Part shown: positions 1,236-45,838 of the stretch, one piece after another
How the letters are laid out: each line of letters begins with the position of its first letter
How positions within the stretch are numbered: position 1 is the stretch's first letter
NCBI GenBank assembly: GCA_009995455.1
Contig: JAACPJ010000001.1
Location: 45,043-109,042 of the forward strand
Length of the DNA: 64,000 nt
Direction of reading: 5' to 3'
DNA from: a bacterium
GTDB taxonomy: Bacteria > Patescibacteriota > Gracilibacteria > UBA4473
Notes under the pieces: model-generated
What the model saw: the letters and a program-made list of their open reading frames with translations, nothing else
What the model was told of the DNA's origin: nothing
Databases searched by the model: none
Made by a program: the position numbers and the translations under genes

Positions 1236-1584
1236 GGTGAAAACGTAAGTAATTTTTATCAACCGCGTAGGCTTTAAATTGCTGCCAGGCAACCGCCAAA
1301 TCGTCGGTATTCTCGGGGATAGATGCCCCTTTGTAAAGACAAACTAACGCGAGCGGCTTTTGGCTACGAATTAAATCCACTCCAACTAAATCATAAACCG
1401 TTCGACGCCAAGAATTTCTGGCCACCGCTCGTTTATCCACTTTTTTACTGATGACGGCCGCAAGCTTAGAGCCTCTTTGTAAAGGACAATAAAAAAACAA
1501 AAAATCCCCCGCCGAAAATTTTTTCATTTTCGGTCGGAGGAATGTAAAATCGCGCCGTGTAAAACGGTGCGTCTTAGAAATCAT
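1228..1584 (-). CDS. rnpA: ribonuclease P protein component
   Basis: 118-aa basic ORF wedged between rpmH and yidC; RnpA-like core ISKKVDKRAVARNSWRR. Confidence 0.8.
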   Translation of the reverse strand: MISKTHRFTRRDFTFLRPKMKKFSAGDFLFFYCPLQRGSKLAAVISKKVDKRAVARNSWRRTVYDLVGVDLIRSQKPLALVCLYKGASIPENTDDLAVAWQQFKAYAVDKNYLRFHHE

Positions 1585-1737
1585 CTACTTCCAAGAGTTT
1601 TCTTTTGGAGCCACTGATAGTGACTTTCGTCCCTTAGCTCGACGACGAGCTATGACACGACGACCCGTTTTAGTCTCCATACGAGCTCTGAAACCATGGG
1701 TTCGCATTCGTTTACGCCAACGTCTTTTTCCTAGCAT
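1585..1737 (-). CDS. rpmH: 50S ribosomal protein L34 with short C-terminal extension
   Basis: Hand-translated 50-aa ORF below the track cutoff: [50 protein letters not shown]. Classic L34 basic pattern; stop codon abuts the rnpA start. Confidence 0.85.
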
Positions 1738-1805: not shown

Positions 1806-2459
1806 CTAAACTGAAGCTTGAGTAAAGGCCAGCTCTAAAGCCTCAAAAGCAAGCTGGATATCTTTTCGATCAATATAAACCGTGAATTCTGAAAAGGTAG
1901 AGGTCGCTTCAATCACGTTAACATTATGCAAAGCTAAGGTGCGCAGCACCGTATATAAAAACCCTGGCTGAGAAGAGTACTCTTTGGGAAACTTGATAAT
2001 CAAAGCGGACACCGAGTCATGCTCAAACTTTGGTTCTTCCTGAATATAAAGCTTAGAAATTTCTAAAAACCGGGCCTCAAATATGACGGCATGTTCGTTC
2101 ATACCTTCATTCCAACCAAAATACCCATTCCGTTCTCGAATCGCATGGCTTAAGGCCTCAACCTGCTTTTCCGTGCGATCATTTTTATAATAAGTCATCG
2201 TCACCAAGTTTGATTGAATGGTAATATTCTCAATTTGGAACTTTGGTTTCATGGCCGCCTCGTTTACATAATTTTGTTGAAGCCGAGAGAGGTTCATCAA
2301 AATGGCCGAAGGGCGCACTTCTTTTTTTAGCTTTGCTTCAATCATTGGCTGCAAAAATTGAGCCAACTGAGTTAAATTAAAAATTCGGTTGGCGAGTCCA
2401 AACGACAAATGAGGATTTTGCGCCACTAATTCTCGAACGACGTCTGATATTTTGATCAT
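1806..2459 (-). CDS. hypothetical protein, possible C-terminal ACT-like domain
   Basis: 217-aa clean ORF. The C-terminal beta-alpha-beta-like segment (PGFLYTVLRTLALHNVNVIEATSTFSEFTVYI) resembles ACT folds. Function not supported further. Confidence 0.45.
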   Translation of the reverse strand: MIKISDVVRELVAQNPHLSFGLANRIFNLTQLAQFLQPMIEAKLKKEVRPSAILMNLSRLQQNYVNEAAMKPKFQIENITIQSNLVTMTYYKNDRTEKQVEALSHAIRERNGYFGWNEGMNEHAVIFEARFLEISKLYIQEEPKFEHDSVSALIIKFPKEYSSQPGFLYTVLRTLALHNVNVIEATSTFSEFTVYIDRKDIQLAFEALELAFTQASV

Positions 2460-2594
2460 TTTGTTGTAAATACAGATTAAAATCTAAAAATTGTTTGATA
2501 ACCAGACAATAAACTAAAACAAAACTTTTTTACATAAATAATTAATTATTTATCTCTAGCCTTTATAAATGATGATGACTCACAAACAAAAATC

Positions 2595-2768
2595 ATGGTT
2601 ACTGACACTTTTCAAAAACGGCACCTTCACTATCAAGTGCTTTACGAGTATGCCTTGCTTGAATACGAGTTAAACCTGCAAGGCAAAGAAGTCCCGCGCT
2701 TGCCCTTAAAAGAGCCGCAAGATTTACTCCGACAAATTAAATCCCTGCGCCAACACTTAAACGTCTAA
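2595..2768 (+). CDS. small hypothetical protein (57 aa)
   Basis: Hand-found ORF MVTDTFQKRHLHYQVLYEYALLEYELNLQGKEVPRLPLKEPQDLLRQIKSLRQHLNV. It fills the gap before holB with a protein-like composition. Below the track cutoff. Confidence 0.3.
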   Translation: MVTDTFQKRHLHYQVLYEYALLEYELNLQGKEVPRLPLKEPQDLLRQIKSLRQHLNV

Positions 2769-2806: not shown

Positions 2807-3529
2807 ATGTCAGCAGAAAAATTAAATCGATGGGTTTCAGAAAACCGTGTGCCACAAAGGCTCCTCCTTTCAGGCAGTGGCAACCTATTAGAATTAGGCT
2901 TAAAAACGGCTTCCTTAATTTTAGATGAACCTTTGATAAAAATAACCCAAGGCATTAATCAAGATGTAAAAGTTTCGGTTGATGATGAACAATCACTTAA
3001 AATTGGAGATCGACAAAACCCTGAATCACTTAGTGTTAGAGGTTTAATTAGATGGCTGCACCAAACGCCGGTTTCTAAAAGACGCGTGCTTGTTTTAGAA
3101 AATTTAGAAAGAACCTCTCGCGACGCCATGCACACCTGGTTAAAAATTCTTGAAGAGCCGCCAGAACGAGCTCAATTTATTTTAACGACTAAAAATCATC
3201 ACCAGCTTCCAACTACAATTTTGTCACGATTGACCGTTTTGCCCATTACCGACATTCCCGTTACAAACCACAGTACTGATGCGTCTGCCTTCCTGGCTTC
3301 AAAAGATTTGATAGACCAATTCCAAATCATTGACGCACTTGATAAAACCCACAAAGACGACCCAAAAATCGCGAAACGATTTATGGATGAATTACTGCAC
3401 GAAGCCAGGCAAAACCCGCAATACCAAAGACTTATTCCTGCCTTTTTTGATGCCTACACCGATATTCAACGTAATATCAACCGACGTTTAGTGCTGGAGC
3501 ATCTTGCGATTTATATGCAAAATCGTTAA
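2807..3529 (+). CDS. holB: DNA polymerase III delta-prime-like subunit (degenerate AAA+)
   Basis: Motifs NRVPQRLLLSGSG and LKILEEPPERAQFILTT...LPTTILSRL (sensor/SRC-like). Followed by a PSP1 gene as in holB-yaaT synteny. Confidence 0.7.
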   Translation: MSAEKLNRWVSENRVPQRLLLSGSGNLLELGLKTASLILDEPLIKITQGINQDVKVSVDDEQSLKIGDRQNPESLSVRGLIRWLHQTPVSKRRVLVLENLERTSRDAMHTWLKILEEPPERAQFILTTKNHHQLPTTILSRLTVLPITDIPVTNHSTDASAFLASKDLIDQFQIIDALDKTHKDDPKIAKRFMDELLHEARQNPQYQRLIPAFFDAYTDIQRNINRRLVLEHLAIYMQNR

Positions 3530-3540
3530 ATTTAAACCAT

Positions 3541-4413
3541 ATGGAAATCTTTCAAGCTCGTGATCTTCTGCGTTATAAAACTGTAACTTTAGCCATGCCA
3601 GAAAACATGGTTCTAAGCTATAAACAACCAATTTTGCTAAAAGGCGCACGCGAAAGCATAGTCGCTGAAGTTATCGGCATGCCCCGCACTTTACCTGGAG
3701 CGCGAACCGATGAAGACCTTGAATTTTCAAAAACCTTAAACTCAGACGAAATTAAAGCCTACGAGGATCTGCAAGAAAAAAGCCAAGACCTGCTAAACCA
3801 AGTTCAGGCTGCCGCCGATGAATTAAAACTGAAAATGTATTTCTTTCATGTGCAAATTGGTTGGGAAGAAAAAACAGTGGCCTGCTGGTTTACCTCAGAA
3901 CAACCGGTAGATTTCAGAGATTTACTAAAAGCCATCACGCCTAAATTTAAAGGCCGGATTCACCTGCAACGACTCGATCCGCGAGACCGAGCCGATATTA
4001 TCGGTGGCCCAAGATGTTGCGGCCGACCAGAATGTTGTGATGTGCGACTGAGCACCAAAAAGATTTCACTTGATGCGGTGCGAGACCAAGGCATTGTAAT
4101 TCGTGGGAACGATAAACTCTATGATGTGAGCGGAAAACTGAAACGATGTTTACTGCATGAAGTCGATATGTATAGGGCAAACCGAAAATACCTGCCTCAC
4201 ATCAAACAAAGTGTAATGGTCGATGGCAAAAAAGCTCAAGTACGAGGTTTAGATATTTTAAACCGCCGCGTTAAAGTGAGCTTTATGGATACCGACGTGA
4301 TTGAGTTTTACCCGGTCGCAGAAGTTGAATACCAAGGCAAACAAGAAAGCGTTGAAGAACCGTTAGATTTCACGATGCCAGAAATTGAGTTAGACGGCGC
4401 CTTACCCGTTTAA
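3541..4413 (+). CDS. PSP1 domain protein (RicT/YaaT-like)
   Basis: Cys cluster GGPRCCGRPECC plus a PSP1-like core; conserved position after holB. Confidence 0.75.
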   Translation: MEIFQARDLLRYKTVTLAMPENMVLSYKQPILLKGARESIVAEVIGMPRTLPGARTDEDLEFSKTLNSDEIKAYEDLQEKSQDLLNQVQAAADELKLKMYFFHVQIGWEEKTVACWFTSEQPVDFRDLLKAITPKFKGRIHLQRLDPRDRADIIGGPRCCGRPECCDVRLSTKKISLDAVRDQGIVIRGNDKLYDVSGKLKRCLLHEVDMYRANRKYLPHIKQSVMVDGKKAQVRGLDILNRRVKVSFMDTDVIEFYPVAEVEYQGKQESVEEPLDFTMPEIELDGALPV

Positions 4414-41566: not shown

Positions 41567-41600
41567 AAATAAAAAGACCGCCCCAGAATTCGAGGCGATC
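41567..41600 (-). terminator. intrinsic terminator inside the glyA 5' leader (attenuator/riboswitch expression platform candidate)
   Basis: Minus-strand GAUCGCCUCG-AAUUC-UGGGGCGGUC (10 bp, 3 G-U) then UCUUUUUAUUU, ending ~20 nt before the glyA ATG. Confidence 0.6.
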
Positions 41601-41701
41601 AGAAAAGACTGCGCAGAAAGACTATACTTCTTTTCGGCCTTTGCCAGAAGGTCTGCGAGCCGCAACTGGAGTGGATAAAATGTGGGTCATTTTTCGCTCC
41701 C

Positions 41702-41731
41702 AATGTACCGTAAATCCTCTGGTTGCGTCAA
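41702..41731 (-). promoter_or_regulatory. candidate glyA promoter
   Basis: Minus-strand TTGACG (41731-41726), 18 nt, TACATT (41707-41702). The hexamers are the same as at metA. Confidence 0.5.
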
Positions 41732-41749: not shown

Positions 41750-42238
41750 TTAGAAATTTAGATTTCGAATCTCACTCCTCTCAAAAAAGTGCACCAGGAT
41801 TTTTTCCAGCCAGATTTTATCGGTCTCATTAAAAGACGCTTTTTCGGTACTATCAACATCGAAAACCGCTATTAAGTTTTTTTGAGGATCAAAAACCGGC
41901 ACTACAATTTCTGAATTTGAGGCGCTATCGCAGGCAATATGCCCCGGAAAAGCGTGCACATCTTCTACCAATTGTGTTTCACGTGTCTTGGCAGAAGCAC
42001 CACACACGCCTTTACCAAAATCAATATGCAAACAACCAAGAGTACCTTGGTAAGGCCCCACAATTAATTTTTGTGGTTCTGACACCAAATAAAATCCGAC
42101 CCAAAAGTAATACGGAAAATTTGTTTTCAGCACGCAATTAATCGTACTCATTTTAGTGATCCAGTTATCTTCGGTTTTCAGTAGATTTTGTAACTGCTTA
42201 AAAGAGAGTTCGTAAGCTTTAGTTTTAGAAAAAGTCAT
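41750..42238 (-). CDS. msrC: free methionine-(R)-sulfoxide reductase (GAF domain, YebR/MsrC-like)
   Basis: GPYQGTLGCLHIDFGKGVCGAS and VEDVHAFPGHIACDSASNSEIVVPV closely mirror E. coli YebR GPFQGKIACVRIPVGRGVCGTA / IEDVHVFDGHIACDAASNSEIVLPL. Confidence 0.8.
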   Translation of the reverse strand: MTFSKTKAYELSFKQLQNLLKTEDNWITKMSTINCVLKTNFPYYFWVGFYLVSEPQKLIVGPYQGTLGCLHIDFGKGVCGASAKTRETQLVEDVHAFPGHIACDSASNSEIVVPVFDPQKNLIAVFDVDSTEKASFNETDKIWLEKILVHFFERSEIRNLNF

Positions 42239-42266: not shown

Positions 42267-43565
42267 TTAAGAAAGAACGGCCAGCAAACGACGAGCCACC
42301 TCTTGGTGATAAAAATTAGCCGAATGCAGGCGCACTCCTAGTTTCGCAGCTAGGGCCTCACCCCCTAAATCGGCTTCTGGTAACAATCCGCCCGCAATAC
42401 CAATCGCTCCCGCTTGTGGAATAATTTTTCCCGTTTCGTTGTGCAATAAACCATTCCGATCAACGGCGTATTCGCCCTTACTGAGCTTCGGATTTATTGG
42501 TTCACCAGCCGCATCAAATAAGGGGATTTGATTCGCCATTAAACCCGTCGCCCAAATAAGATGTTCCGGGGCTTCATAAGCCGCGTTTGCTTGAGAAACA
42601 ATTTCAAATGGCGACGAAAAGTTATGAGCTTCAGCTTGGATACGTCTTCCAATTTCCCCCGCTTTACCTCGAGCGCCCGTATACCGAAAGGCGCGATTCG
42701 TTTGGGGGCACACTTCAGATTCTGCAAAATATTGCTGACTCGCTTTATCCCTAAAAAGCAACTTCGAGCCACTTTCAACCGTCTCAATTTGGCTTTCAGC
42801 GCGAAAGGTCTTTATGGGTTGGCCGTTGGTATAAATCTTAAATGAATTTGGTCGTAAATCACGGCCTTGAAATTCTAAATTTTCCACCAACAAAGCCAGG
42901 CAAAGAAGACCAGAGTGACCAGCCCCGACAATGCCTAAATCTTTGCCTGAAGTGTATTTATCAATTAAATCCGCCAAAGCTTCTTCATTAAAAATTGCTT
43001 CTGCCAACGTAAAGCGATCGGCCTCCCAAGTACTGGGTGGAAGTTTGGCTTGAGCGCCCGTGGCAAGAATTAAGTTTTTAACCCGATGTTTTTCGGCTTT
43101 CTCAGTAACAATATCCCAAGCAAGACCATCAGGCTCTTCAACCATTTGCGCACAAGCAATTCTGGTTTCGGTAATGACTTGGCTAGGTGAATTATCGACT
43201 TCCCAAGTGGCTTTTAAAACCCGGCCCACTTGGTTATAAAATTTTGCCACCACTAGCAATGGAACCGTAACCGCCTCTGGGTCATCAATATATTGCTGTA
43301 ACTGTTTGCCTTCTGGCGTGTTCAGACTTTCGGCTAAGGGTGAATTTGGAGAAATGGTTAAAAACTCCGAAGGTAAAGAGTTACTTGGAATACCATTGTA
43401 GTTTCCCAAATTTCCACCCCCCAAAGTGGTCTCGTCGCCTTTTTCAAAAATTAAAACGCCCCGGTGTGATAAATCATTAAAACTTTCTAAATCTGGTTGC
43501 GAAACCGGCAAAGCAATGCCGCCGGTTCCTCCTCCTATAATGCCGAATTCGGCTGCGTATTTCAT
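42267..43565 (-). CDS. FAD/NAD(P)-binding flavoprotein, class B monooxygenase (FMO/N-hydroxylase)-like
   Basis: Two GxGxxG motifs (GIIGGGTGG, LGIVGAGHSG) and LIWATG near the C-terminus. Confidence 0.6.
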   Translation of the reverse strand: MKYAAEFGIIGGGTGGIALPVSQPDLESFNDLSHRGVLIFEKGDETTLGGGNLGNYNGIPSNSLPSEFLTISPNSPLAESLNTPEGKQLQQYIDDPEAVTVPLLVVAKFYNQVGRVLKATWEVDNSPSQVITETRIACAQMVEEPDGLAWDIVTEKAEKHRVKNLILATGAQAKLPPSTWEADRFTLAEAIFNEEALADLIDKYTSGKDLGIVGAGHSGLLCLALLVENLEFQGRDLRPNSFKIYTNGQPIKTFRAESQIETVESGSKLLFRDKASQQYFAESEVCPQTNRAFRYTGARGKAGEIGRRIQAEAHNFSSPFEIVSQANAAYEAPEHLIWATGLMANQIPLFDAAGEPINPKLSKGEYAVDRNGLLHNETGKIIPQAGAIGIAGGLLPEADLGGEALAAKLGVRLHSANFYHQEVARRLLAVLS

Positions 43566-43589
43566 GTTGTAAATTAAGCTTAAATATTA

Positions 43590-43617
43590 AAAAAATCCCC
43601 AGCTTCAGAGGCCGGGG
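43590..43617 (-). terminator. intrinsic terminator between the metA-like gene and the flavoprotein gene
   Basis: Minus-strand CCCCGGC-CUCUGAA-GCUGGGG followed by AUUUUUUU. It pairs fully (one G-U) only on the minus strand. Confidence 0.65.
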
Positions 43618-43646
43618 AAAACTTAAATTGAAATTAATAATGTATC

Positions 43647-43727
43647 TCAATTTAGGCTCACCGCGACCACCGAAACTTTCATTTCGGTTCGCATCAAGGC
43701 CTGCATCATTAAAAAATTAAAGTACAT
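43647..43727 (-). CDS. Met-rich mini-ORF (26 aa), possible second leader peptide
   Basis: MYFNFLMMQALMRTEMKVSVVAVSLN (5 Met). Starts 8 nt after the metA stop and ends 29 nt before the terminator hairpin. Confidence 0.25.
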   Translation of the reverse strand: MYFNFLMMQALMRTEMKVSVVAVSLN

Positions 43728-43735
43728 TTGTGGGT

Positions 43736-44812
43736 TTATTGATTAAAGAGTGCCAGCGGATTTTCCGGATCAACACCTTTCATGTATTTTCGATGTCTGT
43801 CGTAACTGGTAAGTTTTAAAACCGAGCTCACCCAACGGTGAATTAAAGCCGTTCCAGGAGCTTTCCAGGTCACTTTAACCTCTGGCTCAATTTCACCATA
43901 AAATTCTCTTCTAGCCCGCGAACCAACCACGCCAGAGGCGGTAAATTCCCTTAAAAGCAACTCGCCTTCAGGTGTCAAAAATGTGGGAAATGTCGGTTCG
44001 GCTAATTTACCCTCTTTAAATAAATTCAAGTCCCGTAAATACTCTTTAAGTAAACCCAAAGAATCATATTCAGAGTGAGTTTGAATCCCTACAAAATTCA
44101 TTTTTGGATCCGTCGCCGCTCCAACCGATTGGCGCACATTTTCAGCTTGGTTGAGTACTATAAAACCCGCTTGTTCCGCTTGTTCGGCGCTAATGTCTCC
44201 CCAACGCGAAGAAAGGGCATTAAAGTTTGTGTCACCACCACGTGTTAACACGTGCTTTCGAGCAGATTTTGGGACAAAGTGAGGAATTACTCCCCAGTTT
44301 TTTTCATCTCCATTCTCCGGCACCCCGAGTGTTCTTTGCACTCCATATTTTGTCTCTAACAGCGTGTGAAAAGCAAAACAAGAGAATAACCCCGAGGTTA
44401 CTGGCCCCTCTTCAATAGCCTTAACAAGCTTTTGAAAATCTGGTAAATAGGGCACCTCATTTAAAGTTTTGAAATCATGTTCGGTATTAGCACCCGTAAA
44501 AATTAAAGCATCCAAACCTTCATCTAAAACCGCATCAACTCGTCGTCCAAATTGAGCCGCATGTTCGGCCGCTTTTCCGGCTCTCACAACCCCTTCTAGA
44601 TTTACATAATGCAGGTGAATTTGTAAGGATTGATCCGCTAAATTTATTAACTGAGCCCAGTCTTTAATCGTTTGGAAATAAGCACTATCAGGCATCAAAT
44701 TTACTAAACCAAAATGTAATTCCCGAAAGCGGGCCGTTTCCCCACGTGCTTTATCTTCCACTCCTGGCAATCCATCTAAGGTTTTATCTCCTAAGTAATT
44801 AATTAACGACAT
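43736..44812 (-). CDS. metA: MetA-family homoserine O-acyltransferase
   Basis: By-eye alignment to E. coli MetA. LVNLMPDS vs LNLMPKK, LIFTGAN vs LIVTGAP, catalytic Cys in LFSCFAF vs LFVCWAV, and His/Glu in IQTHSEYD vs TGHPEYD. Confidence 0.85.
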   Translation of the reverse strand: MSLINYLGDKTLDGLPGVEDKARGETARFRELHFGLVNLMPDSAYFQTIKDWAQLINLADQSLQIHLHYVNLEGVVRAGKAAEHAAQFGRRVDAVLDEGLDALIFTGANTEHDFKTLNEVPYLPDFQKLVKAIEEGPVTSGLFSCFAFHTLLETKYGVQRTLGVPENGDEKNWGVIPHFVPKSARKHVLTRGGDTNFNALSSRWGDISAEQAEQAGFIVLNQAENVRQSVGAATDPKMNFVGIQTHSEYDSLGLLKEYLRDLNLFKEGKLAEPTFPTFLTPEGELLLREFTASGVVGSRARREFYGEIEPEVKVTWKAPGTALIHRWVSSVLKLTSYDRHRKYMKGVDPENPLALFNQ

Positions 44813-44828
44813 ATTCTAGTTTTAAATA

Positions 44829-44857
44829 ATAAAAAAACCGCCTAGAGCAGGCGGTTT
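44829..44857 (-). terminator. intrinsic terminator inside the metA 5' leader
   Basis: Minus-strand AAACCGCC-UGCUCUA-GGCGGUUU plus a U-run, ending ~17 nt before the metA ATG. No upstream minus-strand gene is available for it to terminate. Confidence 0.65.
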
Positions 44858-44881
44858 AATGTTTAAAGCTTTATTTTTTAG

Positions 44882-44935
44882 CTACACACTAATCCGACTA
44901 CCCTTTTGCAAGAGCATCATCATAGCCATAGCCAT
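44882..44935 (-). CDS. Met-codon leader peptide MAMAMMMLLQKGSRISV
   Basis: ATG GCT ATG GCT ATG ATG ATG CTC TTG CAA AAG GGT AGT CGG ATT AGT GTG TAG. It lies between the promoter and the leader terminator of metA. Confidence 0.55.
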   Translation of the reverse strand: MAMAMMMLLQKGSRISV

Positions 44936-44956
44936 CAATAAATAATTCACGAGCAC

Positions 44957-44985
44957 AATGTAATCAGATTCTTTACAATCGTCAA
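44957..44985 (-). promoter_or_regulatory. candidate metA promoter
   Basis: Minus-strand TTGACG (44985-44980), 17 nt, TACATT (44962-44957). Confidence 0.5.
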
Positions 44986-45021
44986 ATTGCATTTTATCCA
45001 TCTAGCGGTATTAACTCACTA

Positions 45022-45237
45022 ATGAATGGCGAAAAAGGCTTTATGGAAAAAGGGTTAGCCGATCTTTTAGGATTTATTTTACCAGAAGAAAACAAAGAAG
45101 CTAAGGTAAATTTAATAGCCGAAGTAGTACGGGCCTGCCAAGAAGTTATTGAACAATCTGATAAAGATATTTGTGTCATTACCCGTGGTGGGTCGACCCA
45201 AACACTTCTCAAGTTTAGTAAAATTAATACCCTGTGA
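45022..45237 (+). CDS. hypothetical 71-aa protein
   Basis: Protein-like composition, stop 4 nt before the trmB start. Preferred over the overlapping junk-like minus ORF 44994-45326. Confidence 0.5.
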   Translation: MNGEKGFMEKGLADLLGFILPEENKEAKVNLIAEVVRACQEVIEQSDKDICVITRGGSTQTLLKFSKINTL

Positions 45238-45241
45238 CGCG

Positions 45242-45838
45242 ATGAATAAAAGAACCAGAACCCATTCCAACCCACTGGCGAATCTGCAAGAAATACACTT
45301 TGAAGGTTTTGGAAACGATAACCCAATATTTGTCGATGTAGGTGCGTTTAAGGGGGAATTTATGGAAAAACTAGCTGAAAAATTCCCGAATCATAATTTT
45401 ATTTGTTTTGAAATACGCACTCCAATCGCGGAAGCGTTAAAAGAAAAGTTTAAAGATAAGCCTAATTTTAGAGTCTTTGAAGGTGACGCCGCCCGCAACT
45501 TTAAAAATATTCTAGAACCGTGTCTCAATGAGGGCGCTTCCATTGAACAAATTTTTGTAAATTTCCCTGACCCGTGGTTTAAAGACCGCCATAAAAAGCG
45601 CCGTTTTATCACCACCAAGTTTTGCAATGATCTGGCACAATGGTTTCCAGCCAAAACCGAGATTGTATTTCAAACCGATCAACAATTCTTATTTGAAGAA
45701 ACACTCGAATACTTAAAAGAAACACCATACAAAGGCATTAATCAATTTGAAGGCTCTGTGCATGGCATTCCCACCGACTGGGAAACAGCTAAACTGGCAA
45801 AAGGGGAAAAAATCTGGCGCATGAAATTTACGCGTTAG
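45242..45838 (+). CDS. trmB: tRNA (guanine-N7)-methyltransferase
   Basis: VDVGAFKGEF, FVNFPDPWFKDRHKKRR motifs. Start refined to the ATG at 45242. Confidence 0.85.
   Translation: MNKRTRTHSNPLANLQEIHFEGFGNDNPIFVDVGAFKGEFMEKLAEKFPNHNFICFEIRTPIAEALKEKFKDKPNFRVFEGDAARNFKNILEPCLNEGASIEQIFVNFPDPWFKDRHKKRRFITTKFCNDLAQWFPAKTEIVFQTDQQFLFEETLEYLKETPYKGINQFEGSVHGIPTDWETAKLAKGEKIWRMKFTR

Follow-up and report, generated by a model that had tools for sequence, protein, structure and literature searches.

A candidate methionine-sensing transcription attenuator of the trp type upstream of a MetA-family gene in a Gracilibacteria-type bacterium

Introduction

Attenuation by a leader peptide is documented for trp, his, leu, thr, ilv and phe and, in a translational form, for cysteine. 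Methionine is normally sensed by means of SAM riboswitches, T-boxes or repressor proteins, and it has sometimes been assumed to be unsuitable for attenuation, as AUG is also the start codon and the initiator tRNA needs the same amino acid. No established methionine attenuator of the leader-peptide type was found in the searched literature.

The leader analysed here precedes a MetA-family gene on the minus strand of a 64-kb stretch of DNA (hereafter the window, i.e. the whole stretch that was analysed). Like the trpL, his, phe, leu, thr and ilv leaders of E. coli (Rfam families Trp_leader RF00513 and Phe_leader RF01859), it carries a run of cognate codons in region 1, can form mutually exclusive 1:2, 2:3 and 3:4 helices, has a stop codon at which a terminating ribosome would block region 2, ends with an intrinsic terminator located just 5' of the first structural gene and encodes a peptide that does not seem to be under selection. 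Unlike these classical attenuators, it concerns methionine, has no Shine-Dalgarno sequence, carries its ORF nearly at the 5' end, belongs to a host from the candidate phyla radiation (CPR; Gracilibacteria-type) and is one of two unrelated Met leaders found in series in one operon. It belongs to none of the Rfam leader families. The SAM riboswitches (SAM-I to SAM-VI and SAM/SAH) and the Met T-boxes share with it the control of metA or other methionine-supply genes, often with a terminator/antiterminator output, but they sense SAM or uncharged tRNA directly through conserved aptamer or T-box folds.

Two systems based on short 5'-end ORFs are also comparable in some respects. The polycysteine leaderless short-ORF attenuators of mycobacteria, which constitute the 'Cys ribulon' (Canestrari et al., bioRxiv 10.1101/834739), also have AUG- or GUG-initiated ORFs with consecutive codons for the amino acid with which the operon deals, at which a stalled ribosome remodels the downstream RNA, and they also respond at several loci to a common signal. 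The leader described here differs from them by its intrinsic terminator output, by its genes devoid of Shine-Dalgarno sites, by the amino acid concerned and by the phylum. In Streptomyces lividans, a leaderless short ORF with Met codons, 'metL', was proposed upstream of the methionine-related operon metNIQ and viewed by its authors as a methionine-dependent attenuator. In the accessible part of that report (PMC8079986), the peptide, MSTTSDRTPATEATTTPGARCMCRRMCAF, has only two internal and non-adjacent Met codons, according to the authors no typical terminator is present and the mechanism of termination is unclear, and the support comes from a single genome with no covariation evidence.

Organization of the leader region

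All the parts of the leader are on the minus strand. A consensus scan recovers the promoter described in an earlier note on this DNA, TTGACG (44985..44980) and TACATT (44962..44957) separated by a 17-nt spacer (44985..44957). Taken alone, promoter-like sites are at chance level in the leader region (4 found for 4.7 expected). A GTG located 6 nt past the -10 box, at 44950, opens a frame of 22 codons that ends with TAG (44950..44882; (GTG)NYLLMAMAMMMLLQKGSRISV). The 17-codon ORF reported by the same note does exist (44935..44882), but it is only a shorter version that begins at the ATG corresponding to codon 6, the conserved frame starting five codons upstream at the GTG.

Codons 10–12, AUGAUGAUG (44923..44915), are putative regulatory Met codons. 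As ATG represents 2.1% of the internal codons of the long ORFs of the window, three given consecutive ATG codons have a p of ~1e-5, and ATGATGATG is found only 3 times in the 64-kb window, both strands counted. The Met run does coincide, as had been pointed out, with a CAT/CATAGC simple repeat, but this repeat does not behave as a random microsatellite since AUGAUGAUG is invariant in the nine homologous leaders considered below. Another copy of ATGATGATG, at position 2569 (plus strand), starts a 34-aa ORF without terminator and was set aside; the gene located 3' of this ORF appears by eye to be holB-like.

Region 1, UGGCUAUGGCUAUGAUGAUGCUCUU (44934..44910), is the 5' strand of a hairpin supported by the minimum free energy (MFE) fold, RNAalifold and pair counts, and referred to as the anti-antiterminator; its loop is GCAA (44909..44906). 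Region 2, AAGGGUAGUCGGAUUAGUGUGUAGCUA (44905..44879), holds the TAG and the six sense codons that precede it, and its partner in predicted folds is either region 1 or, via 44904..44886, region 3. Region 3, ACAUUAAACCGCCUGCUCU (44862..44844), consists of the bases directly 5' of the terminator together with the 5' arm and loop of the latter. Regions 3:4 constitute the intrinsic terminator (44857..44824), in which a terminator scan finds a hairpin (44857..44835; AAACCGCC-UGCUCUA-GGCGGUUU, -13.6 kcal/mol) followed by a U-rich run that ends about 12–16 nt before the ATG of metA. This is the hairpin already noticed by eye, with arms given as AAACCGCC/GGCGGTTT. A minus-strand ORF does lie upstream of the leader, a mechanical ORF of 110 aa (44994..45326). 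It has no Pfam match and is antisense to a plus-strand 71-aa ORF and to trmB, so that the terminator serves no upstream gene, as had been stated.

Conservation of the leader in related genomes

Homologous leaders were located via relatives of MetA, an exact-motif scan of large collections and relatives of TrmB. Eight further distinct versions were recovered from related metagenomic genomes of the Gracilibacteria type, giving nine with that of the window. All nine have the promoter, a frame of 22 or 23 codons, Met-Met-Met at codons 10–12, the TAG and the terminator, so that the mini-ORF proposed earlier is conserved in its frame, Met run and stop codon. The promoter is always at the same place and includes a TTGAC box, a spacer of 16–17 nt and a TAxxxT box. 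Likewise, a hairpin followed by a U-run is found at the same place in every leader (-7 to -15 kcal/mol), with stem sequences that differ. The frame has 22 codons in seven leaders and 23 in two, the difference being an in-frame indel of 3 nt, and it is the only open frame in eight of the nine. It contains 4–6 ATG. Codon 1, which is ATG in six leaders and GTG in three, lies 6–12 nt past the -10 box, a location compatible with a leaderless or nearly leaderless mRNA. Given the GTG at codon 1 in three leaders, the start codon may be either codon 1 or codon 6. The absence of a ribosome-binding site is no objection to such an ORF, as these genomes are nearly devoid of Shine-Dalgarno sites (motif found in 1 of 40 long genes).

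Variable columns show no preference for any of the three codon positions (5/5/4 and 9/7/7), which suggests an absence of selection on the amino acid sequence of the leader peptide, as would be expected in an attenuator. In a neighbouring ORF, also of 22 codons and likewise 11 nt away from a -10 box, the distribution is 1/0/9 and points to clear selection at the protein level, in keeping with translation in the absence of a Shine-Dalgarno sequence being normal in this lineage.

The leader family seems to be confined to a narrow clade, as the loci of L020 and L021, whose TrmB relatives are 65–68% identical, have no leader or no synteny; the neighbouring TrmB proteins of the leader-bearing genomes are 70–83% identical where measured. 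The nine sequences therefore represent few independent changes, and part of the comparative support rests on MAFFT alignments of short sequences. In the terminator region, MAFFT alignments lacked structural consistency and were rejected as a basis for a covariance model. The exact-motif scans yielded four copies of the L001 sequence (L007–L010) and a single new leader (L011); two other matches, L006 and L012 (Fibrobacter), have no flanking similarity and were rejected as due to chance. Among the MetA relatives, that of L003 (67% identical) is on a short contig without leader, with a GAF gene 33 nt upstream, and those of L004 and L005 (45% identical) have no leader but an overlapping RNase T gene. 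L004 and L005 do not translate with table 11.

The leader persists where another gene has taken the place of metA: in four related genomes, it is followed first by a gene encoding a SAM-dependent methyltransferase. As this is not a methionine-supply gene, it would argue against a methionine-sensing device.

Mutually exclusive RNA structures

Both the MFE fold and RNAalifold predict the anti-antiterminator hairpin, in which the strand bearing the Met codons pairs with region 2. In alignment A2, 92% of its cells are paired (27–49% in slid controls) and six pairs are changed on both sides; the covariation score reaches 0.347, a value attained by only 1 of 500 shuffles (0.235 in shuffles). The upper part of the hairpin has been entirely rebuilt from one genome to another (CUCUU/AAGGG, CGCUC/GAGCG, ACUUCUC/GAGAAGU and CCCG/CGGG). 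In the helix that includes the Met run, all the variation is on the partner strand and at times breaks pairs, although the neighbouring helices covary freely. As only the partner strand varies, the Met run appears to be constrained beyond pairing.

No convincing antiterminator had been found by eye. The present comparison identifies one, in which GGGUAGUCGGAUUAGUG pairs with the 5' arm and loop of the terminator. Its pairing covaries (single positions being for example UG/CG/UA, AU/GC/GU or UA/CG), with 85.7% of cells paired versus 28–48% in slid controls and four pairs changed on both sides, and its core is predicted independently by RNAalifold. The region 2 x region 3 duplex is more stable than shuffles in eight of the nine leaders (z = -2.2 to -4.8; -4.4 in the window), the antiterminator of L013 being weak (z = -1.1). 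The best partner of region 3 is its own region 2 in L017 and L019, and region 2 ranks second in L018.

Predicted folds switch with the position of the ribosome. Co-transcriptional folds, in which region 4 is not yet made, were taken as the relevant test rather than the MFE folds of full-length leaders. When a ribosome masks Met10 or Met12 in such nascent transcripts, the antiterminator is obtained in all nine cases with -14 to -23 kcal/mol, the terminators being weaker (-7 to -15 kcal/mol). In full-length leaders, the terminator is the minimum-energy fold in all nine with a ribosome on the stop codon, and likewise without ribosome; it also persists in L013, L018 and L019 when the Met run is masked. 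In nascent transcripts without ribosome, regions 2:3 are already paired in the MFE of five of the nine leaders (window, L002, L011, L013 and L017), so that termination in the absence of stalling relies on a kinetic argument, i.e. the 1:2 hairpin forming first.

These data bear on two explanations that involve no stalled ribosome. The first one is that the leader senses nothing and is a constitutive leaky terminator or an insulator between divergent promoters, its ORF and alternative pairings being incidental and inherited within the clade. Shared ancestry does account for part of the conservation, as one clade holds all nine leaders, and shuffle controls can be exceeded by related sequences that have no structure at all. 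However, neighbouring proteins are only 67–83% identical while a block of 19 nt, which intergenic DNA free of constraint should not have kept, is identical in five leaders, three different helices have stems remodelled by two-sided changes, region 2 tracks the changing sequence of the terminator stem and the leader is retained despite replacement of its downstream gene, all of which makes an absence of sensing very improbable.

The second one is that a protein responding to Met or SAM reads the spaced AUG-GCU-AUG-GCU-AUG-AUG-AUG in the manner of TRAP or PyrR. Five AUG spaced by 3–6 nt are reminiscent of the (G/U)AG repeats to which TRAP binds in the B. subtilis trp leader (PMC3064811), and the alternative structures would suit any effector acting on region 1. 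But the outer AUG triplets vary (UUG..GCG in L001, UAC in L013, CUG in L019) and only the run of three is kept; furthermore, occupancy of region 1 leads to antitermination, which would imply binding when methionine is scarce, the reverse of known co-repressor logic. This explanation also leaves the conserved frame and stop codon unaccounted for, and no candidate gene is linked to the locus. Such a protein is thus a very doubtful effector.

Search for known riboswitches

A scan of the whole 64-kb window did not detect any Rfam family at the gathering score. In leader 1, leader 2 (see below) and the leaders of L018, no SAM or T-box family was found at E<=10, in keeping with the earlier reading of the locus as something other than a known methionine riboswitch. 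More generally, any matches obtained in permissive Rfam scans of these leaders and of the glyA leader are sub-threshold and mostly driven by hairpins or terminators. This is the case of Trp_leader (23.6 bits in the window and 27.8 in L018, for a gathering score of 41) and Phe_leader (25.2 for 55), both matches being terminator-driven.

A sensor independent of translation, riboswitch or T-box-like, would make the ORF a mere by-product of AUG repeats: the internal loop formed by AUGAUGAUG opposite GUCGGAUUAG would bind Met, SAM, SAH or the CAU anticodon of tRNA-Met, and the bound ligand would tip the choice between antiterminator and terminator. In favour of such a sensor, SAM riboswitches and T-boxes are the usual regulators of methionine genes, both strands of the loop are almost invariant while the flanking stems covary, as in a ligand pocket, and, given AUGAUGAUG, about ten further open codons are not improbable. 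Several observations nevertheless make this sensor unlikely. Besides the lack of any SAM, SAM/SAH or T-box model match at E<=10 and of any T-box-like sequence that was noticed, the hairpin is stable without ligand (-9 to -27 kcal/mol) and forms first, so that a ligand-dependent OFF switch would add nothing. The 3' side of the pocket is changed at several positions in L016 and L019, whereas AUGAUGAUG never is. The frame is kept in all nine leaders, despite an indel that is itself in-frame, and so are a start codon close to where transcription begins and the location of the stop. Finally, the second leader, unrelated to the first one, is also rich in Met codons, and it is unlikely that two new classes would both happen to have Met-rich ORFs. 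One form of this explanation, i.e. a new class in which the AUGAUGAUG/GUCGGAUUAG loop binds Met, a derivative or the CAU anticodon without T-box sequence and the ORF is secondary, is slightly less likely still.

A model for methionine-dependent attenuation

Taken together, the conservation of the leader, the absence of known riboswitches and the alternative structures, with an antiterminator predicted exactly when the Met run is occupied, support the reading of the earlier note: the leader is probably a ribosome-mediated, methionine-sensing transcription attenuator of the trp type. From this anatomy, conservation, covariation and predicted fold switching, we infer that the leader ORF is translated, that ribosome and RNA polymerase are coupled and that read-through responds to the charging of the elongator tRNA-Met.

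The following model can be proposed. Transcription would begin ~7 nt past the -10 box. The leader ORF would be at the 5' end of the transcript or a few bases from it, and its translation would require no Shine-Dalgarno sequence in this lineage. Region 1 bears Met codons 6, 8 and 10–12; 1:2 would act as anti-antiterminator, 2:3 as antiterminator and 3:4 as an intrinsic terminator located ~16 nt before metA. When charged elongator tRNA-Met is plentiful, the ribosome would reach the UAG and hide the UCGG core of region 2, leading to formation of the terminator and release of a leader RNA of ~120 nt. In the absence of ribosome, the 1:2 hairpin would form first and the terminator would follow. When Met-tRNA is scarce, the ribosome would stall at AUG-AUG-AUG over region 1 and free region 2, which would pair with region 3 before region 4 is made, allowing RNA polymerase to enter the methionine-supply genes. 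A second Met-codon leader with its own terminator would repeat the decision before the oxidoreductase and Met-sulfoxide reductase genes. The signal could be blunted, as methionine limitation also lowers the charging of the initiator tRNA.

If this model is correct, the leader would be the first well-supported methionine-codon attenuator found in the searched literature, used twice in series in a CPR bacterium without Shine-Dalgarno sites. It would provide a covariation-supported case in which ribosome stalling on AUG runs serves as a methionine gauge, and it would indicate that the four-region design can function on a nearly leaderless transcript devoid of Shine-Dalgarno sites. It would also be among the few cis-regulatory RNA mechanisms defined in bacteria of the candidate phyla radiation, whose regulation is largely unknown. 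As the design is short (~120 nt), it is directly testable in heterologous or cell-free systems.

Putatively regulated genes and second Met-rich leader

The first gene past the leader (44812..43736, minus strand, with an ATG at 44812) encodes a 358-aa protein of the MetA family of homoserine O-acyltransferases, as had been proposed from the sequence (PF04204, HTS/MetA, E=1.1e-36 on residues 21–335). This protein matches NCBIfam NF003776 over its full length with 202 bits, under the equivalog cut-off of 358 bits. It aligns with MetA of E. coli (PDB 7CBE), the segments lfsCfa/lfvCwa and tHsEyd/gHpEyd being kept; on this reading of the alignment, the catalytic Cys and His/Glu motifs (FxC and HxEYD) appear to be conserved. 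The two following genes, on the same strand, encode a 432-aa flavin/NAD(P) oxidoreductase-like protein (43565..42267; weak Pfam match to Pyr_redox_2) and a 162-aa GAF protein of the free methionine-R-sulfoxide reductase family (42238..41750; Pfam GAF_2). The latter matches the PDB entries 3MMH (Met-R-sulfoxide reductase), 3KSF, 1F5M and 1VHM with E = 1e-29 to 1e-35. The regulated set (MetA-like enzyme, oxidoreductase and free Met-R-sulfoxide reductase) would thus be devoted to methionine supply, so that the control of methionine biosynthesis suggested earlier applies to a supply set rather than to the full biosynthetic pathway.

The second Met-rich leader (43727..43589, minus strand) lies within the operon between metA, the stop codon of which is 8 nt upstream, and the 432-aa gene. 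Its sequence is unrelated to that of the first leader. It includes an ORF, MYFNFLMMQALMRTEMKVSVVAVSLN followed by a stop codon (43727..43647), a switching strand (43676..43656) and a terminator (43618..43596 plus a U-run). L013 and L018 also have it, and the oxidoreductase gene follows it in each case. When Met codons 10–12 are masked, an antiterminator is predicted, and in the window and L013 the terminator is obtained with a ribosome at the stop codon; in L018, an antiterminator-like helix is the predicted fold even without ribosome and no good terminator was found. A generic scan, which is only illustrative, looked for short ORFs that are enriched in a single amino acid and precede a terminator; it detected the second leader and missed the first one, probably because in-frame alternative starts located upstream lengthen the ORF of the latter past the limit.

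A third conserved upstream ORF precedes glyA. In its leader, masked folds revealed no antiterminator. The occurrence of two unrelated Met leaders in series and of this third conserved ORF suggests that the lineage leans heavily on regulation by upstream ORFs.

Anatomy of the metA leader and its locus

Upstream of a gene with its ATG at 44812, the minus strand carries, in this order, a promoter TTGACG-17-TACATT (44985..44957, found by sequence scan), the short ORF ATG GCT ATG GCT ATG ATG ATG CTC TTG CAA AAG GGT AGT CGG ATT AGT GTG TAG (44935..44882), an A-rich spacer and an intrinsic terminator, AAACCGCC-TGCTCTA-GGCGGTTT followed by a T-run (44857..44835). An earlier note made from the sequence alone had described this promoter, Met-rich mini-ORF, hairpin with U-run and MetA-family gene, and all are found in place; the whole is called leader 1 here. 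The gene product (358 aa) matches Pfam PF04204 (E=1.1e-36), matches the NCBIfam MetA models over its full length with a score below the equivalog cut-off, and aligns to E. coli MetA (PDB 7CBE) with the Cys and His-x-Glu motifs retained (alignment read by eye). These sequence matches place it in the HTS/MetA family. Downstream of it lie the genes of a 432-aa flavin/NAD(P)-oxidoreductase-like protein and of a 162-aa GAF protein, then glyA. Solved structures of free methionine-R-sulfoxide reductases match the GAF protein (3MMH, also 3KSF, 1F5M and 1VHM; E = 1e-29 to 1e-35), and the unit therefore concerns methionine supply.

The region upstream of leader 1 is a divergent intergenic one, where a 71-aa ORF without family match (45022..45237, plus strand) separates the promoter from trmB (plus strand, to 45838; Pfam Methyltransf_4). 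On the minus strand, a mechanically predicted 110-aa ORF (44994..45326) is antisense to both and has no family match, so that the terminator has no upstream gene to serve, as had been claimed. No gene was called between trmB and the leader at the related loci inspected (e.g. L001, L002 and L013-L019).

Distribution of the leader

MetA relatives are rare, and two of them (loci L001 and L002) bear leader 1. An exact 18-mer from the leader occurs once in the window; in large sequence collections, it retrieves further copies of L001, two chance matches and one new genome (L011). Since the leader always adjoins a divergent trmB, TrmB relatives were used to fetch further loci, which added L013, L016, L017, L018 (on a 1.3-Mb contig) and L019 and, with the window, brought the set to nine distinct leaders. 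It is absent from L020 and L021, whose TrmB proteins are 65-68% identical, so that the family is confined to one narrow clade. At L020, a different leader (1473..1690, minus strand) with a short ORF (MMPVTHENFSY*) and a terminator precedes glyA, and a Trp_repressor-family gene (2204..2482, plus strand) adjoins trmB.

The first gene after the leader is metA in the window, L001, L002 and L014/L015. In L011 (896..1528), L016 (3148..3801, minus strand), L017 (3082..3699, minus strand) and L018 (3184..3804, minus strand), metA is replaced by a gene for a small class I SAM-dependent methyltransferase (MTS/PrmA-like), which suggests that the methionine leader signal also governs a SAM-consuming enzyme in these four genomes. 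In L013, a second Met-rich leader and the oxidoreductase gene follow directly.

The leader ORF

The earlier note's proposal to look for Met-codon runs upstream of metA in related genomes is answered by the nine leaders. The 17-codon ORF that it described is present, but the conserved frame is longer and includes these codons as its codons 6-22. This frame has 22 codons (23 in L018 and L019, by an in-frame 3-nt indel) and is the sole open frame in eight of the nine sequences. Codon 1, located 6-12 nt downstream of the -10 box, is ATG in six leaders and GTG in three; codons 10-12 are ATG ATG ATG and the stop codon is TAG in every one, ATG making up 2.1% of internal codons in window genes. The encoded peptides are (V)NYLLMAMAMMMLLQKGSRISV in the window, MNLQTLVATMMMPLQTGSRISV in L001, MKNLLMAMPMMMLLQKGSRISV in L002 and L011, MQKFEMSYIMMMPLTEGSRISI in L013, MQNLLMAMTMMMPRAGGSRIGV in L016, (V)AKQLMAMIMMMRSDERGRISV in L017, (V)QNLSMAMTMMMTSLKRSGRISA in L018 and MQNLMMALEMMMIPFLRGGLNFA in L019. 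Variable columns are spread evenly across codon positions (5/5/4 and 9/7/7), which indicates that the peptide itself is not under selection; none is expected on the peptides of attenuator leaders. For a TRAP-like protein to act through the AUG triplets, its binding would have to occur under methionine scarcity, and conservation does not extend to the outer triplets. Between genes, the window has just one further ATGATGATG; it starts a 34-aa ORF, MMMTHKQ... (2569..2673, plus strand), which overlaps a 57-aa ORF, has no terminator after it and precedes a gene (at 2807) that looks holB-like by eye.

RNA structures and the proposed ribosome switch

A long hairpin and the terminator make up the predicted fold of the free leader (-36.6 kcal/mol, z = -2.4). 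In the long hairpin (1:2, the anti-antiterminator), region 1, UGGCUAUGGCUAUGAUGAUGCUCUU (44934..44910), pairs with region 2, AAGGGUAGUCGGAUUAGUGUGUAGCUA (44905..44879), with GCAA as the loop. The nine sequences give the same hairpin in RNAalifold, with 92% of alignment cells paired (27-49% in slid controls), six pairs changed on both sides and a covariation score of 0.347 versus 0.235 in shuffles (1/500). Its top is wholly rebuilt between genomes and the peptide there is altered too. In the helix formed by the Met run, variation affects the opposite strand only, at times breaking pairs, and pairing is thus not the only constraint on the AUG run.

A second complement of region 2 is region 3, ACAUUAAACCGCCUGCUCU (44862..44844), made up of the bases preceding the terminator plus the terminator's 5' arm and loop. 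The earlier note had found no convincing antiterminator by eye; the core of this 2:3 helix is predicted independently by RNAalifold from the nine sequences and supported by compensatory changes. In the extended helix, four pairs are changed on both sides and paired cells make up 85.7% (slid controls, 28-48%), with UG/CG/UA, AU/GC/GU and UA/CG at single positions of the per-sequence pair table. The duplex of regions 2 and 3 beats shuffles in eight of nine leaders (z = -2.2 to -4.8; -1.1 in L013), and region 3 finds its best partner in the region 2 of its own leader in L017 and L019, and its second best in L018. L019 carries an AACCGCC motif twice (~3770..3810, minus strand; AAACCGCCUGUAAUUCAACCGCCCACUGAGCGGUUU), which gives region 2 two possible partners, one of them outside the terminator. 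Compensatory changes in three helices, and the survival of the leader when the downstream gene was replaced, contradict the idea that it was purely inherited, without function.

A ribosome was mimicked by masking a footprint of ~30 nt, alternative structures being among the checks that had been proposed. When the mask places the A site at the Met run, full-length folds give the antiterminator in all four closely related leaders and in six of nine overall; with region 4 (the 3' arm of the 3:4 terminator) untranscribed, as at the moment of decision, it forms in all nine (-14 to -23 kcal/mol, the terminators being weaker at -7 to -15 kcal/mol). All nine full-length leaders have the terminator in their minimum-energy structure when the A site is placed at the stop codon or the ribosome is left out. 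One caveat is that, even without a ribosome, the minimum-energy fold of five of the nine nascent transcripts already pairs region 2 with region 3; the model hence relies on hairpin 1:2, which would form before 2:3 in the unstalled state. A first-forming 1:2 hairpin is usual in attenuators, as in the trp leader.

The main rival is a new riboswitch or tRNA sensor, for which the strong conservation of the hairpin's internal loop would speak. However, the hairpin is stable alone and would form first, L016 and L019 differ on the 3' side of the loop with AUGAUGAUG unchanged, and the frame, start codon and stop codon are kept. Moreover, the Rfam comparison suggested earlier to exclude a riboswitch returned no SAM or T-box match to the leader, no Rfam family reaches its gathering score in the 64-kb window, and a second, unrelated Met-rich leader is present.

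A second Met-rich leader

Leader 2 (43589..43727, minus strand), situated between metA and the oxidoreductase gene, shows no evident resemblance to leader 1 in sequence. Its ORF, MYFNFLMMQALMRTEMKVSVVAVSLN* (43727..43647, minus strand), starts 8 nt after the metA stop codon; its terminator, UCCCCGGCC-UCUGAAG-CUGGGGA (43618..43596, minus strand), is followed by the oxidoreductase gene, which it always precedes (window, L013 and L018). The ORF reads MNFLLLMMFMMRNLMRVSVVAVSLH in L013 (~3640..3777, minus strand), where both leaders stand in tandem, and MFSLRELMMYMMTEMSVSVVAVNLRC in L018 (~3040..3170, minus strand). Masking Met codons 10-12 frees GUUUCGGUGGUCGCGGUGAGC, which pairs with the terminator 5' arm and loop; with the ribosome at the stop codon, the terminator forms in the window and L013, that of L018 being poor. 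Two unrelated leaders having only Met-codon enrichment and switch logic in common are hard to explain otherwise than by ribosome sensing.

Predicted translation without Shine-Dalgarno sites

Among 40 long ORFs (at least 200 aa) of the whole window, only one has a Shine-Dalgarno-like motif upstream; the absence of such a site is thus no objection to translation of the leader ORF. Upstream regions of the long genes are A/U-rich instead. The glyA leader (41571..41731, minus strand) has a promoter TTGACG-18-TACATT (41731..41702) and, 11 nt after it, a 22-codon ORF, MTHILS...RPSGKGRKEV* (41690..41622), then a terminator ~25-30 nt before glyA; it also precedes glyA in L011, L013, L014, L016, L017 and L018. 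Variation in the last ten codons is almost only third-position (variable columns 1/0/9), with residues kept, a clear sign of protein-level selection. This argues that an ORF so placed relative to the -10 box is translated in this lineage, and translation of the leader 1 ORF itself is predicted. The glyA leader, which has no amino-acid run, no Rfam match and no antiterminator in simple masked folds, may be a peptide-dependent attenuator or encode a small protein.

Taken as a whole, the comparative and structural evidence supports the ribosome-mediated Met-sensing attenuator proposed initially: leader 1 is probably a Met-specific leader-peptide attenuator, operating without Shine-Dalgarno site on a transcript predicted to be nearly leaderless, and with leader 2 this device would be used twice in one CPR operon.

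Comparison with known systems and host context

Leader 1 is predicted to work like the trp, his, phe, leu and thr leaders, with which it agrees in every structural criterion testable in silico; it belongs to none of the Rfam leader families (Trp_leader, 23.6-27.8 bits versus a threshold of 41). No established methionine attenuator was found in the searchable literature, whose coverage of subscription journals is incomplete, and no RNA element for methionine operons emerged from a 2005 survey of Actinobacteria (PMC1262725). The nearest known items are the 'metL' proposed before metNIQ in Streptomyces lividans, whose two internal Met codons are scattered and which lacks a typical terminator (PMC8079986), and the mycobacterial polycysteine leaderless short ORFs, whose target is translation of the following gene (bioRxiv 10.1101/834739).

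The window has a G+C content of ~41% and no tRNA genes in its 64 kb. Its proteins have close relatives in metagenomes and in genomes labelled Candidatus Gracilibacteria; a more distant TrmB relative carries the label Candidatus Peregrinibacteria. The 40 long ORFs end in TAA (28), TAG (9) and only three times in TGA. For the more distant MetA relative on L004/L005, the table 11 translation disagrees with the database protein, a hint that the genetic code may be altered in a neighbouring lineage.
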